NCBI GenBank assembly: GCA_038211425.1
Contig: JBBQVQ010000001.1
Location: 39,991-103,990 of the forward strand
From: Candidatus Limnocylindria bacterium
GTDB taxonomy: Bacteria; Chloroflexota; Limnocylindria; P2-11E
Length of the DNA: 64,000 nt
Reading direction: 5' to 3'
The notes beneath the pieces are model-generated. The model saw only the letters and a program-made list of their open reading frames with translations. It was not told the origin of the DNA and ran no database searches. Shown here in pieces: positions 14,994-19,454 of the stretch (its first letter is position 1; each line of letters opens with the position of its first letter). Both the position numbers and the translations under genes were made by a program.

Positions 14994-15161
14994 CCCGAGC
15001 TCGATCGCCCGGATGCCCGCGAGGGGACCCGGCGTCTTGGCTCGACTCGCGGCAGTCCCCTGGGCCTCGATGCCGCGATTATGTCCGGTGTCGACGCAGC
15101 GTCCGTTCGGCTAGACTCGCTTCGAAGAAGAGATCCAGAAGGATCCAGGAAAGGACAACGG

Positions 15162-15434
15162 GTGCCGCCCGCCATCCGCGAGAGCAAGGCAGAGGTAATC
15201 GCCGCGTACCGCCGGACCGAGACCGACACCGGGTCACCGGAGGTCCAGATCGCGATCCTCACCGAGCGCATCAAGCATTTGACCGACCATCTGCGCACCG
15301 CGAAGCACGACAACCACAGCCGCCGCGGACTGCTCATGATGGTCGGACAGCGACGCCGCCTGCTTGCCTACCTCCATCGCAAGGACCCCGAGCGGTACCA
15401 GGCGATCATCGGACGGCTCGGGCTGCGGCGGTGA
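15162..15434 (+). CDS. rpsO: 30S ribosomal protein S15
   Basis: 90 aa with ..[49 protein letters not shown]... GTG start with aggaaagga RBS. Precedes pnp. Confidence 0.9.
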
Positions 15435-15478
15435 CAGCACAGCCCTAGCGGACCGCACCCGCGAGAAACAGCCACAAG

Positions 15479-17698
15479 ATGCCGATCAGCCGATCCCAGG
15501 CGACCATCAGTGACCGCGCGCTCACGTTCGAGACGGGCAAATACGCCGCGCAGGCCGGCGGGGCCGTCACCGTCCGTTACGGGGACACCATGGTGTTCGC
15601 CGCGTCGACCGTCTCGAAGTCGATACGGCAGGGCATCGACTTCTTCCCTCTCACCGTGGACTTCGAGGAGCGGCTGTACGCGGCCGGCAAGATCCCGGGC
15701 TCCTTCCCCCGCCGCGAGGGCCGGCCATCGGAAGAGGGGATCCTCACGGCGCGGCTCGTGGACCGGCCGATCCGGCCGCTCTGGCCGAAGGGCTTCCGCA
15801 ACGACGTCCAGATCGTCGTGTCCGCGTGGTCGAGCGACCAGGAGAACGACTATGACATCCTGGCGGTCAACGCGGCCTCCGCGGCACTGGTGATCTCGAA
15901 CGCGCCGTTCGAGGGGCCGATCGGGTGTGTTCGCGTCGGCACCGTCGGGGGCAGGCTCTCGCTCAATCCGACGATCCAGCAGATGGACGGCAGTGAGCTC
16001 GACCTCGTGGTCGCGGGAACGAAGGACTCTATCATGATGGTCGAGGCCGGAGCGCAGGAGATCTCCGAGGACAGGCTCGTCGAGGCGCTCGCCCTGGCGC
16101 AGGAGGGCATCGTCAAGATCTGCCAGGCTCAGGAGGAGCTCCAGCGCGCCGCAGGCAAGCCCAAGCTGGACATCGCGGCTCCGGTCCACGATGCCGCGGC
16201 ACACGCACCGGTGCGGACGTTCTTCGAGGAGAGGATCCGCGCTGCGCTGCGCGACCCCGACAAGGCCAAGCGAGAAGCCGGCCTCGACCAGCTGAAGGCC
16301 GAGGCGATCGCCAAGTTCGTGGCGGACGAGGGTGCGATCACCCCCGAGGAGGTCTCCGCGGAATGGGAGAGCGTCCTCGAGCGGGAGTTCCGCACGGCCG
16401 TCGTCGGCGAGAACCTGCGGCCCGACGGGCGCGACACCAAGGCGATCCGGCCGTTGTCGATCGAGGTCGGCGTCCTCCCGCGCGCGCACGGCTCGGGGCT
16501 GTTCCAGCGGGGACAGACCCAGGTGCTCTCAGTCGCGACGCTCGGGCCGTCGGGCGATGAGCAGATCATCGACACGCTCTCGCCCGTCGACACGAAGCGA
16601 TACATGCACCATTACAACTTCCCGCCGTACTCCGTCGGCGAGGTGCGAATGATGCGCGGCGCCAGCCGCCGCGATATCGGCCATGGCGCGCTCGGCGAGC
16701 GCGCGCTCCTTCCGGTCGTCCCGACGAAGGAGGAGTTTCCCTACACGATCCGCGTGGTCAGCGAGACGCTCGAGTCGAACGGGTCGTCGTCCATGGCATC
16801 GACGTGCGGTTCGACGCTCGCGCTCATGGATGCCGGCGTTCCGCTGAAGAAGATGGTCGCGGGCATCGCGATGGGACTCATCGTCCAGGACGGGAAGCAC
16901 ACCATCCTCACGGACATCCAGGGACTCGAGGACCACTACGGCGACATGGACTTCAAGGTCACCGGGACGGACACCGGCGTGACCGCGCTCCAGATGGACA
17001 TCAAGGTCAAGGGGATCAGCCTCGACATCATGCGCGAGGCCCTGGCCCAGGCCCGCGAGGCGCGGCTGTTCATCCTCCAGGAGATGCGGCAGGTCATCGA
17101 CAAGCCGCGCGCGGAGCTGAGCAAGTACGCGCCGCGCATCGACACGATCCGGATCCACCCCGACAAGATCCGCGAGGTCATCGGTCCCGGCGGGAAGATG
17201 ATCCGGGCGATCCAGAGCGAGTCCGGGACGAACGTGGAGGTCGAGGACGACGGAACTGTGCGGATCACGGGCGCGAAGCCCGAGGGCCGCGAGAAGGCAC
17301 GCCAGATGATCGAGGGCCTCACCAAGGAGGCCGAGGTCGGCGAGGTGTACGACGGCAAGGTCACAAGGATCATGAGCATCGGCGCGTTCATCGAGTACCT
17401 CCCCGGCAAGGAAGGCCTGGTACGCGTCTCCGAGTTGTCGTCGGGACGCGTGAACAACGTCGAGGACGTGGTGAAGGTCGGCGACAAGGTCAAGGTCAAG
17501 ATCGCGGAGGTCGACCGGCAGGGGCGCGTCAACCTTTCGATCCGCGCCGTCGAGGAGGGCGATCCGGGAGGGTTCGAGCAGCGCCAACGGGCGGAACGCG
17601 AGCGGTTCCGCGAACGTGAGGGCACCGGGGGCGGCTTCCGACCTCGTCCCGGCCCGGGTGGGGGAGGCTTTCGACGGAGCGGGCCGCCCCGCTCCTAG
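15479..17698 (+). CDS. pnp: polynucleotide phosphorylase (polyribonucleotide nucleotidyltransferase)
   Basis: 739 aa with two RNase PH domains, KH and S1 domains, and a G/R-rich tail. Confidence 0.95.
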
Positions 17699-17871
17699 CG
17701 ACGGGCTGGCCGACGCTCTCGCTCATCCTCCCCGCGTACAACGAGGCTCGCCGGCTACCGGCGAGCCTCGCGCATTGCGCCGAGTTCCTTCGCGCGCGAT
17801 CGCTCGAGGCCGAGATCATCGTCGTCGACGACGGCTCGACCGACGGCACGGGCGCGGCGTTCGCGGACACG

Positions 17872-18483
17872 GTGGCCACCCTTCCCCAGGCCCACCTCGC
17901 CTACCGGCTGCTCCCGATGCCGCACGCGGGAAAGGGGGGGGCCGTGCGCGCGGGGGTCGCGGCCGCGATCGGCGATCCGATCGTCTTCCTCGACGCCGAC
18001 CTCACGATCCCGGTCGAGAGCATCGACATGTTCATCGAGGCGCTGGCGGGAGGCGCCGACATCGCCGTCGCTTCGCGCTACGTCAAGGGTGCGGTCGTCG
18101 AGCGGCCCTGGTGGCGCGTATTCATGGGCGTCGTCTTCCACACCTGCGTCCACCTCATCGTTCCGGTCGATGTGAACGACACTCAGTGCGGCGGTAAGGC
18201 ATACACGGCCGAGGCCGCGAAGTACCTCTTCCGCACCTCGCGCCTGGACGGCTTCGCATTCGACGCCGAGGTGATCTTCCTCGCCCGGAGGGAGGGATAC
18301 CGCGTGGCGGAGCTGCCGGTCGAACTGCGGCAGCGCGGGGAGACGAGCATCGACTTCCTCGCGGACACCCTCCGCATGCTTCGCGATCTCGTGCTGATCC
18401 GGTTCAACGCCGCCACGGGGCGCTACGAAAGGCTCCGGCAACCGGCTCCGTCGCCGAGGCCGAGTCTCGGGCCGGGTGAGTGA
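17872..18483 (+). CDS. GT2-family glycosyltransferase (polyprenol-phosphate sugar transferase / DPM1- or HpnI-like); N-terminus extends upstream
   Basis: 17872 is the first canonical start (GTG). The same frame is open from 17620 and encodes the GT2 hallmarks LSLILPAYNE (about 17716-17745) and VVDDGSTDGT (about 17821-17850) upstream of it. The real start is therefore between 17620 and about 17725 and is non-canonical or unresolved. Confidence 0.7.
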   Translation: MATLPQAHLAYRLLPMPHAGKGGAVRAGVAAAIGDPIVFLDADLTIPVESIDMFIEALAGGADIAVASRYVKGAVVERPWWRVFMGVVFHTCVHLIVPVDVNDTQCGGKAYTAEAAKYLFRTSRLDGFAFDAEVIFLARREGYRVAELPVELRQRGETSIDFLADTLRMLRDLVLIRFNAATGRYERLRQPAPSPRPSLGPGE

Positions 18484-18647
18484 GCGCGCTCCGGGGGGAC
18501 TTCGGCCCCAGAGACCCCCGAGTGGCGTCCGGAGAAGTGCGCACGCCTCCGCGGTCCGCCGTCGATCTCGGCGCATCCCCGGAATGAAGGCGACCCCCGC
18601 TGCATGAGGCTTCTCGCAGCCCCTCCGACCACGGCCCCTCGGGGCCC

Positions 18648-19454
18648 CTGGTCGTCACCGCTGACGACCTGGGCTTCTCGGGAGCGGTGACGCGGGGCAT
18701 CCTCGCCGCGTACCGGAACGGCATCGTACGGTCGGCTTCGCTGCTGGTGACGTTTCCGGGGAGCGCCGAGGCGGCCGCGCTGGCCGTGCGCGAAAGCGGC
18801 CTCGAGGTGGGTTTGCACCTCGACCTTGTGGGGGGGCGGCCGGCGACCGATCCATCGGCGGTGCGCAGCATCGTTGACGGTGATGGCCGCTTTCATCCAC
18901 TCGGCGCGTTCGTGCGCAGGCTCGTCACCGGGCGTGTGCGCGCCGGCGAGATCGCGACGGAGGTGCGCGCGCAGGCGATGCGGGCGCGGTCGTTCGGGAT
19001 CGCCCCACTCGCGTGGGATTCACACCGGCATGTGCACCTGATCCCCTTCATCGCGCGCGTCGTGGGCGGGGTGGCCAGGGACGAAGGCGTGCGCTGGCTG
19101 CGGCGGGGCCGGTCGCCCGACGTCGCGCGAGGCTGGAAGCCACGGGCGCTGTCGGTGTCGACGGTCGCGAGCGAGAGATTCTTCGGCGGCATCCCCGGCA
19201 ACGATTGGTACCTCGATCTGTCGTCGTGGCGCCCGCGGCCCGGTCCCGCGGCACTCGGGCTCCTGGCGAGGGCGCCCGGCTCGGGCGAGCTCGGCTGCCA
19301 TCCCGGCCAGCTCGACGACGGGCCGGACGCGGGCGACGCGCTCGCGCCCCAGCGCGTGGCGGAGCTCGCCATGCTCACTGAACCAGCGCTGCGGGCGGCG
19401 CTCGCTCACCAGGTCGGCTGGCGCGTCCCGGCGCGCTCGGCGCGCGGGGGCTGA
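18648..19454 (+). CDS. YdjC/ChbG/HpnK-family carbohydrate deacetylase
   Basis: Conserved N-terminus LVVTADDLGFS..GI..A...G.V.S.SL (YdjC: LIVNADDFG) begins at CTG 18648. The first GTG is at 18687 and the frame is open from 18588. Confidence 0.7.
   Translation: MVVTADDLGFSGAVTRGILAAYRNGIVRSASLLVTFPGSAEAAALAVRESGLEVGLHLDLVGGRPATDPSAVRSIVDGDGRFHPLGAFVRRLVTGRVRAGEIATEVRAQAMRARSFGIAPLAWDSHRHVHLIPFIARVVGGVARDEGVRWLRRGRSPDVARGWKPRALSVSTVASERFFGGIPGNDWYLDLSSWRPRPGPAALGLLARAPGSGELGCHPGQLDDGPDAGDALAPQRVAELAMLTEPALRAALAHQVGWRVPARSARGG

Follow-up and report, generated by a model that had tools for sequence, protein, structure and literature searches.

The window analyzed here, a 64,000-nucleotide stretch of a Candidatus Limnocylindria genome with a G+C content of 69.9%, contains three genes in which the conserved N-terminus is encoded upstream of any ATG, GTG, or TTG codon: a CoA-transferase III gene (CoAT), a GT2 family glycosyltransferase gene (GT2), and a YdjC-family deacetylase gene (YdjC). 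Our findings suggest that all three are functional and that each is probably translated from a near-cognate initiation codon, namely ATC in CoAT, ACG in GT2, and CTG in YdjC, which the initiator tRNA presumably reads as methionine. Starts of this kind would limit synthesis of the enzymes to a small, constant share of what a canonical start would yield, and a tendency toward them appears to be common to the Limnocylindria clade. The three genes lie in one cluster, in which the CoA-transferase gene (minus strand) is followed by rpsO, pnp, GT2, and YdjC (plus strand).

The comparison draws on two independent NCBI contigs of metagenome-assembled genomes (MAGs), L161 (GCA_030774595.1) and L162 (GCA_046262615.1, Ca. 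Limnocylindria), found through a homolog search with the CoA-transferase and subsequent contig look-ups. Both are collinear with the window over approximately 2-24 kb, their proteins are 75-96% identical to those of the window, and synonymous divergence (dS) among the three genomes is 0.38-0.88. In a set of species-representative genomes, the two closest relatives by polynucleotide phosphorylase (PNPase) identity are L001, a groundwater Chloroflexi MAG (81%), and L003, a Candidatus Limnocylindria MAG (79%), which places the window in the class Limnocylindria of the Chloroflexota; an exact-sequence search with the window PNPase itself found no record. A metagenome search with the GT2 protein contributed approximately 18 more loci from the clade (≥60% identity), along with approximately 60 more distant homologs. 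Frames were translated, and domains were placed with Pfam and NCBIfam scans.

In each of the three genes, the Pfam domain begins well before the first ATG, GTG, or TTG, by 10 codons in CoAT, 51 in GT2, and 13 in YdjC. These open reading frames (ORFs) contain neither internal stops nor frameshifts and give full-length Pfam matches; internal stops are also absent from pnp and from two further genes described below, an HMG-CoA-lyase-like (HMGL-like) gene and an ABC-transporter ATPase gene. The ratio of nonsynonymous to synonymous divergence (dN/dS) among the window, L161, and L162 is 0.15-0.16 for CoAT, 0.12-0.15 for GT2, and 0.17-0.29 for YdjC; values for the other genes compared are 0.05-0.08 (PNPase), 0.09-0.10 (ABC ATPase), and 0.16-0.20 (HMGL-like gene). 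From this sequence comparison we conclude that CoAT, GT2, and YdjC are intact functional genes under purifying selection. An all-against-all ORF screen was swamped by shadow and antisense ORFs in this 70% GC DNA, and its refined version, used for confirmation only, mostly flags conservation in alternative frames; GT2, CoAT, YdjC, and ribF of the L086 locus stand out in it.

The start region of CoAT comprises the following features:

13842-15071, minus strand: CaiB/BaiF-type CoA-transferase III gene, from ATC 15071-15069 to TGA 13844-13842, 409 aa, matching PF02515 positions 1-365 of 366.
15069-15071, minus strand: proposed ATC initiation codon, aligned with an ATC in both L161 and L162.
14991-14993, minus strand: first canonical ATG of the frame, internal (MMIAGPF), 10 residues inside the Pfam domain.
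15078-15083, minus strand: CATAAT, a -10-like hexamer 6 nt 5′ of the ATC and possible promoter of a leaderless mRNA.

In the CoAT frame, which is open from 15110, position 1 of the PF02515 profile falls at residue 30 and ATG 14993 at residue 40. Reading the leader directly (15113-14994, minus strand) revealed no ATG, GTG, or TTG in any of its three frames, so a single insertion or deletion (indel) cannot supply a canonical start. The leader reads CATAAT CGCGGC ATC GAG GCC CAG in the window, CATAAT CGCGCA ATC GAC GCC CAG in L161, and CATAAT CCCGGC ATC GAG AAC CAG in L162, where ATC is the only near-cognate codon common to all three. Elsewhere, the same column holds ATG (L081, L163, L164) or GTG (L165). 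Codons 3′ of the ATC vary synonymously among the three genomes (ACT/ACG/ACC, GCC/GCT, GCG/GCA), and L161 and L162 differ by a 1-nt indel approximately 10 codons 5′ of it, a sign of non-coding DNA, so that the coding sequence must open at the ATC or slightly upstream of it. NCBI annotates the L162 protein P0001 (409 aa, MENQSTAAGPARTAGPLAGIR) from this same ATC, and the window protein read from ATC 15071 is equal to it in length, with N-termini that align residue for residue. The sequence-only reading had proposed a conserved CoAT N-terminus upstream of ATG 14993 with ATC 15071 as a candidate start, a proposal that the translation, the domain placement, and the sister genomes bear out.

Gene callers take the internal ATG instead, which yields truncated CoAT products of 382-383 aa (P0002, P0013, P0028, and others). 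Seven such calls were present among the top matches (P0002, P0013, P0016, P0028, P0031, P0034, and P0035), and five of them were looked up. P0031, P0028, and P0013 were discarded as start-less candidates, given that a canonical ATG, GTG, or TTG lies upstream and the truncation is a choice of the gene caller; only P0002 (from L161) and P0016 (from L169, with ATA) lack a canonical start. The L169 gene belongs to a variant operon encoding a binding protein, CoAT, and HMGL, in which the CoAT start region overlaps the upstream stop; here an ATA overlaps the TAG (ATAG, approximately 1480-1520), and no canonical start lies nearby. In L170, the same variant operon (approximately 440-470) has TAACG followed by a TTG, which NCBI takes as the CoAT start.

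Being the first gene of a divergent unit, CoAT does not follow closely on an upstream stop codon, and its leader resembles that of a leaderless transcript: a -10-like element stands 6 nt upstream of the start, and a Shine-Dalgarno (SD) motif is absent. Of the eight CoAT loci examined, seven (window, L161, L162, L081, L163, L164, and L165) have the sequence GGACATAAT at 6-8 nt from the start codon, with a distance of 8 nt in the last four; in L168, the exception, it lies approximately 60 nt upstream. Hexamers matching TATAAT at five of six positions are rare in the window, with only seven on both strands, two of them directly before gene starts. The second of these two precedes the uracil-DNA-glycosylase gene (20132-20146, plus strand), where CATAAT and 6 nt lead to ATG 20144; the corresponding gene is preceded by AATAAT and 6 nt in L161 and by CATGAT and 7 nt in L162. 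This arrangement suggests that leaderless transcripts exist in the lineage, and ATC 15071 is probably the first codon of a leaderless or near-leaderless CoAT mRNA transcribed from the CATAAT element. Leaderless mRNAs of Actinobacteria, Deinococcus, and archaea likewise carry a -10 box approximately 7 nt before a 5′-terminal start and have no SD motif, but to our knowledge they start with AUG, or with GUG in mycobacteria, whereas the aligned CoAT codon is AUC in three genomes.

The second gene, GT2, follows pnp, and its features and the codons found in relatives at the position directly before the conserved LSL[IV]LPAYNE segment (position -1) are as follows:

17713-18483, plus strand: GT2 family glycosyltransferase gene, from ACG 17713-17715 to TGA 18481-18483, with PF00535 beginning at LSLILPAYNE.
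17696-17698, plus strand: TAG stop of pnp (PNPase), 14 nt 5′ of the proposed GT2 start.
17872-17874, plus strand: earliest canonical codon of the GT2 frame, an internal GTG that 51 residues of the domain precede.
Position -1, canonical codons: ATG in L090, GTG in L092, TTG in L082.
Position -1, near-cognate codons: ATC in L083-L088 and L106, CTG in L001, L003, and L095.
Position -1, other codons: GTC in L089, L091, and L093, GTT in L081.

The GT2 frame is open from 17620, with PF00535 position 1 at residue 34 and GTG 17872 at residue 85, and the VVDDGSTDG segment is also encoded 5′ of that GTG. These observations, like the absence of an in-frame CTG from the open frame upstream of the domain, agree with the sequence-only reading, which had also found no canonical start there; it had not considered the in-frame ACG codons at 17701 and 17713, the second of which now appears the likeliest start. 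At position -1, the window, L161, and L162 all carry ACG, and the 17 further clade loci carry ATC (seven), CTG (three), GTC (three), and GTT, ATG, GTG, or TTG (one each). Read as sense codons, the column would give M, V, L, I, L, T, and V, a pattern typical of a start-codon column. The three columns that follow remain L-[S/T]-L through synonymous changes, with serine encoded by both TCN and AGC. This pattern shows that LSL is translated, which rules out a GT2 start further downstream. NCBI nevertheless places GT2 starts downstream, at the ATC of LSL-I in L162 and at a CTG after AYNEARR in L161.

Nine loci narrow the choice further. In L001, L003, L083-L088, and L106, an in-frame TAG closes the GT2 frame two to four codons before LSL, leaving the ATC or CTG at position -1 as the sole near-cognate codon. 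In two of them, the in-frame codons after the pnp TAG are CGC CTG CTC TCA (L001) and CCG CTG CTC TCC (L003), with only two codons between the stop and LSL. Among the 20 non-edge clade loci counted, 13 have an open frame upstream of LSL that contains no canonical start, vs 0 of 62 homologs below 55% identity, a contrast that chance does not explain. Canonical codons do exist 14-16 codons upstream of the domain in L081 and L093, and none in L089 and L091.

Wherever pnp lies upstream, its stop is 0-15 nt before the GT2 start column, a proximity that suggests coupling of GT2 translation to terminating ribosomes. The ACG of the window, L161, and L162 also follows a weak, GGG-containing SD-like motif at a distance of 6-7 nt, with 7 nt in the window. 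Initiation at ACG 17713 would thus probably be aided by ribosomes that have just terminated on pnp, through coupling or re-initiation, and the predicted N-terminus of the product is M-LSLILPAYNEAR.

YdjC, the third gene, is separated from GT2 by an inserted spacer:

18600-19454, plus strand: YdjC-family deacetylase gene, from CTG 18600-18602 (alternative CTG 18648-18650) to TGA 19452-19454, matching PF04794 positions 2-265 of 266.
18687-18689, plus strand: earliest canonical codon of the YdjC frame, a GTG inside the gene that follows TADDLGFS, as placed by translation and Pfam.
18484-18599, plus strand: GT2-YdjC spacer with a GC-rich hairpin-like stretch, an in-frame TGA (18585-18587), and GAAGG (18586-18590), not present in most relatives.

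In 17 relatives without the insertion, YdjC starts within an ATGA, GTGA, or TTGA overlap with the GT2 stop, and the distance from this start to L[VI]VTADD is two codons in 12 of them, three in L081, L082, and L097, and one in L002 and L096. Common to the window, L161, and L162 are a longer GT2 C-terminus and a spacer. The spacer of L162 is short and in frame, and its YdjC gene starts with GTG(A); in the window and L161, approximately 165 nt separate the GT2 stop from LVVTADD, and neither has a canonical start in this interval. The window does have a GTG at 18480 that is in the YdjC frame and overlaps the GT2 stop, but the TGA at 18585-18587 cuts it off. The frame is open from 18588, with PF04794 position 2 at residue 21 (LVVTADD) and GTG 18687 at residue 34.

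An SD-like motif stands 9 nt before CTG 18600 in the same alignment column in both genomes, as GAAGG (18586-18590) in the window and GGAGG in L161. From this CTG to LVVTADD, both genomes count 16 codons, with synonymous differences at those for E, R, and G. Because the SD motif and CTG are shared and the peptide keeps its length despite synonymous differences, we prefer CTG 18600 over CTG 18648. The sequence-only reading was right that LVVTADD precedes GTG 18687, but CTG 18648, which it regarded as the only plausible start, has a better competitor in the same frame. The predicted N-terminus is M-HEASR or M-VVTADDLGFSGAVTR. A clade-specific insertion would thus have destroyed the ancestral ATGA-type overlap start, leaving YdjC to be translated from CTG 18600 or, less likely, from CTG 18648. 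The N-terminus produced by the insertion is new, and only L161 has a codon, likewise CTG, in the column of CTG 18600. At 116 nt from the GT2 stop, this CTG is also too distant for the stop-start proximity expected of coupling.

The out-of-frame ATG at 18605, which resembles the ATG AGG CTC of L001, was considered as a frameshifted YdjC start and rejected, since L161 has no ATG there and the segment is in the YdjC frame. In L161, the spacer hairpin is a perfect, GC-rich stem, ATGAGGGGCC-GCTT-GGGCCCCTCAT, and the lack of a subsequent T-run sets it apart from a classical terminator; it may be a REP-like element or a regulatory hairpin. A simple scan of the GT2-YdjC spacer and the CoAT leader for promoters and terminators returned no matches. 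With regard to function, the window GT2 (17713-19454 region) gives weak NCBIfam matches to PpgS, ArnC, and dolichyl-phosphate hexose transferase and resembles polyprenyl-phosphate hexose or HexNAc transferases. Its pairing with a YdjC-type deacetylase recalls lipid-linked amino-sugar donor pathways (ArnC/ArnD, PpgS with a deacetylase).

The ortholog alignments place the non-canonical codons in columns where other relatives have conventional starts, with ATC opposite ATG or GTG in CoAT and ACG, ATC, or CTG opposite ATG, GTG, or TTG in GT2; the ABC ATPase described next adds CTG opposite GTG or ATG. No ortholog begins at the first canonical codon of a window gene. A survey of gene junctions identified three more window genes for which a CTG overlapping the upstream TGA is the sole plausible start:

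5505-6275, plus strand: truB, whose CTG start overlaps the stop of the upstream DHH-family gene (CTGA).
12913-13845, minus strand: HMG-CoA-lyase-like gene, whose CTG 13845-13843 overlaps the CoAT stop (CTGA).
12080-12916, minus strand: ABC-transporter ATPase gene, whose CTG 12916-12914 overlaps the HMGL-like stop (CTGA).

The truB overlap recurs in L162, where NCBI annotates the CTG, and in L001, and L095 has GTGA one codon away. For the HMGL-like gene, L161 and L162 read cat ctg ATG, with ATG one codon later, vs cat ctg aga in the window; GGGAGGGGG is present 4 nt upstream of the CTG, and the next canonical GTG falls inside the conserved IVEVGLRDG motif. The ABC ATPase start column holds CTG(A) in the window, GTG(A) in L161, and ATG(A) in L162, and a conserved VVIALRGVSKVYG segment is encoded 5′ of the first canonical GTG. 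CoAT, the HMGL-like gene, and the ABC ATPase gene (12080-15071, minus strand) are consecutive genes of one operon, and all three lack a canonical start in the window, whereas only CoAT does so in L161 and L162. The three CTGA junctions thus differ in standing: that of truB is shared with relatives, whereas the HMGL-like and ABC ATPase anomalies are specific to the window among the three genomes. In terms of stop-start proximity, these three overlaps stand beside GT2, located 14 nt after the pnp TAG. Outside the window, ribF (FAD synthetase) of L086 (462-540, soil metagenome contig Ga0209056_10000714) reads TAA TCT CGA CGC ATC GAG, with CGC GTG of L003 in the same place; the earliest canonical GTG of this ribF falls within the IGxFDGxHxGH motif, and the ATC is preceded by a TAAT 8 nt upstream.

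Near-cognate starts affect at least seven gene families in the clade. Within the window, they account for 6 of approximately 58 genes, all located between 5.5 and 18.7 kb and none between 20 and 64 kb, and the remaining approximately 43 genes all have plausible canonical starts. In the annotation of L162, NCBI uses ATC, ATC, and CTG for 3 of 19 genes in this neighborhood. The region was noticed because of such cases, which makes the local rate an overestimate of the genome-wide rate; the enrichment is real but patchy. As to the claim that the lineage uses CTG, and possibly ATC, unusually often, the comparison supports it: its codons are shared with sister assemblies and ACG must be added to them, but the usage is uneven. 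Of 44 annotated starts in related MAGs, 24 follow an SD-like motif, compared with a background of 18%, so SD-guided initiation is plausible in this clade. A search for an initiator tRNA found no tRNA of any kind in the window and only tRNA-Val and tRNA-Arg in 16 related loci, a tblastn search with an approximate E. coli IF3 query found no match in the related loci fetched, and literature searches returned nothing on start-codon usage in Limnocylindria or Chloroflexota.

A broader possibility, which we regard as tentative, is a relaxed start-codon rule in Limnocylindria, under which AUC, CUG, AUA, and even ACG would be routine initiators for several percent of genes. Such a rule would include a 5′-terminal AUC on leaderless mRNA as well as restart codons next to stops, and its cause would be a lineage-specific change in IF3, the initiator tRNA, or the 30S P-site.

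Several observations weigh against translation of these genes from near-cognate codons, or against its generality. The support is purely comparative. Four GT2 loci carry GTC or GTT at position -1, which are poor start candidates, and L089 and L091 have no near-cognate codon anywhere in the GT2 open frame. A simple promoter scan found neither a -35 element nor a -35/-10 pair near the CoAT leader, and leaderless initiation on a codon other than AUG or GUG is not known to function in model bacteria; nor, as far as we know, is ACG among the start codons of NCBI translation table 11. In E. coli, ACG is very weak, initiating at 0.1-1% of the AUG level (bioRxiv 10.1101/063800). All 20 starts in two fresh NCBI-annotated regions of related MAGs (L166 and L167) are canonical. 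Genuine lesions also exist elsewhere in the window, namely a nonsense codon in dapF and a doubly frameshifted AAA+ gene, and the changes found in the window only (ATG to AGA in the HMGL-like gene, GTG to CTG in the ABC ATPase gene, and the TGA in the YdjC leader) could be errors or decay. Given those lesions, the HMGL-like, ABC ATPase, and YdjC-leader changes call for caution.

Damage to the start sites, leaving genes that are silent or decaying into pseudogenes, is the alternative that the sequence-only reading had offered, and we consider it unlikely. It would draw on the in-frame TAG at a conserved Trp of dapF, the two AAA+ frameshifts, the window-specific HMGL-like and ABC ATPase codons, and the loss of the ancestral YdjC overlap start through an insertion whose leader contains an in-frame TGA. 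Decaying genes, however, would hardly retain intact ORFs with full-length Pfam matches and dN/dS of 0.09-0.29 over dS of 0.4-0.9, and the CoAT, GT2, YdjC, and truB codons recur in independently assembled genomes at 75-91% amino-acid identity for those proteins; in GT2, most loci of the clade are in the non-canonical state. Sequencing or assembly errors that removed canonical starts or shifted frames are far less probable still, even though homopolymer-rich stretches are present, at least two frameshifts occur elsewhere, and the out-of-frame ATG 18605 lies upstream of YdjC. The independent assemblies L161 and L162 reproduce the CoAT ATC and the GT2 ACG, L161 reproduces the YdjC CTG, and public metagenome contigs from separate assemblies have ATC or CTG as their GT2 start codon; moreover, no frame of the CoAT leader holds an ATG, GTG, or TTG that an error could have displaced, and L161 has no ATG at the position of 18605.

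For GT2 specifically, readthrough of the pnp stop (or frameshifting) could produce a PNPase-GT2 fusion. In 11 of the 20 loci of the clade (L001, L003, L082-L088, L106, and L162), GT2 is in the frame of the pnp stop, the in-frame spacers of 0, 3, 6, 9, or 15 nt are multiples of three so that the frame is kept despite indels, and PNPase ends in a flexible, Gly/Arg-rich tail. This count is a point against near-cognate initiation, but after grouping of near-identical loci the excess is only marginal by our own calculation (8 of 13 groups, p ~0.04). The two genes are out of frame in the window, L161, L081, L089, L091, L093, and L095, which makes readthrough impossible in the window and confines it to the in-frame loci; three different stops are involved (TAG, TAA, and TGA), and TTG (L082), ATG (L090), and GTG (L092) exactly at position -1 mark an initiation site. 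Readthrough is thus improbable, and reassignment of TAG was rejected because TAG is the ordinary stop of at least eight window genes. Translation from the first canonical codon, giving N-terminally truncated proteins, matches the output of Prodigal-type callers and, for CoAT and YdjC of L161, of NCBI. We give it very little weight: it would remove the first strand of the CoA-transferase fold, LSLILPAYNE to VVDDGS of the GT-A fold, and TADD of YdjC, segments that are conserved in protein with synonymous DNA changes, and no canonical-start ortholog begins there. Least credible of all is editing of the mRNA from ACG to AUG by C-to-U conversion, as in plant organelles. Conservation of the GT2-start ACG in three genomes would suit it, but the ATC and CTG in the same column of relatives cannot become AUG in this way, nothing in the window indicates an editing system, and we know of no such C-to-U system in bacteria.

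Translation of CoAT, GT2, and YdjC from near-cognate codons has precedents that differ from it in extent. In E. coli, infC and pcnB have conserved near-cognate AUU starts, and NCBI translation table 11 allows CTG, ATT, ATC, and ATA as alternative initiators. The Limnocylindria codons resemble the infC and pcnB starts in that a one-base neighbor of AUG or GUG stands at the orthologous start of an intact gene, is kept over evolution, and probably sets low expression. They differ in the use of ACG, in the lack of an evident autoregulatory logic like that of infC, and in number, with at least seven gene families in one clade and 6 of approximately 58 window genes, compared with approximately 0.05% in model genomes, where annotated starts are ATG (81.8%), GTG (13.8%), or TTG (4.35%) (10.1101/063800). 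Initiation on such codons is feasible: in E. coli, AUC and CUG initiate at approximately 1-2% and ACG at 0.1-1% of the AUG level, and an N-terminal Met has been confirmed by mass spectrometry for ATC and ACG starts (10.1101/063800). The familiar stop-start coupling of ATGA, GTGA, and TGATG junctions is matched by truB, the HMGL-like gene, and the ABC ATPase gene, which start inside the upstream stop (NTGA), by GT2, located 0-15 nt after the pnp stop, and by orthologs that carry ATGA, GTGA, or TTGA in the same column; here, however, the N is a C, giving CTG, or translation would restart on ATC or ACG. Plant organelles share a conserved genomic ACG at the start position, but the host here is bacterial, and the ATC and CTG of relatives are not repairable by C-to-U editing.

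Near-cognate starts, stop-start coupling, and leaderless mRNAs are already known, as are the ATC and CTG starts annotated by NCBI in L162. What is new is a single family, GT2, that opens with a non-canonical codon in the majority of a class-level clade, together with ATC and ACG starts conserved in sister genomes; an AUC at a leaderless 5′ end may be a further novelty. Callers limited to ATG, GTG, and TTG (Prodigal-type) remove 26-27 residues from CoAT, 51 from GT2, including the nucleotide-binding DD motif, and the TADD segment from YdjC, and these errors spread to protein databases (P0002 and the GT2 and YdjC products of L161) and to metabolic reconstructions of an abundant uncultured clade. 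If the relaxed rule were true, standard gene callers would shorten or overlook proteins systematically throughout this clade, which is abundant in soil and freshwater. The persistence of ATC and ACG starts over dS of ~0.5, combined with the GT2 pattern, provides a natural system for studying the stringency of bacterial start-codon selection, and the clade could show whether coupling or leaderless initiation relaxes that selection.

The two lesions located elsewhere in the window are of different kinds. In dapF (approximately 54476-55230, minus strand), an in-frame TAG at 55069-55067 (..GDRDDRV*DWRIHNADGS..) lies opposite a conserved Trp TGG of the Limnocylindria orthologs P0121-P0124; it appears to result from one G-to-A nonsense change or to be an artefact of the assembly or strain. 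In the AAA+ ATPase-like gene (approximately 44758-44990, plus strand), PRGMLLS is encoded in frame 0 to approximately 44778, APGTGKTF...IYIDASSL in another frame from 44784 to approximately 44870, and …CLPIDELD again in frame 0 from approximately 44878. These two compensating frameshifts approximately 95 nt apart indicate a pseudogene or a local assembly error.

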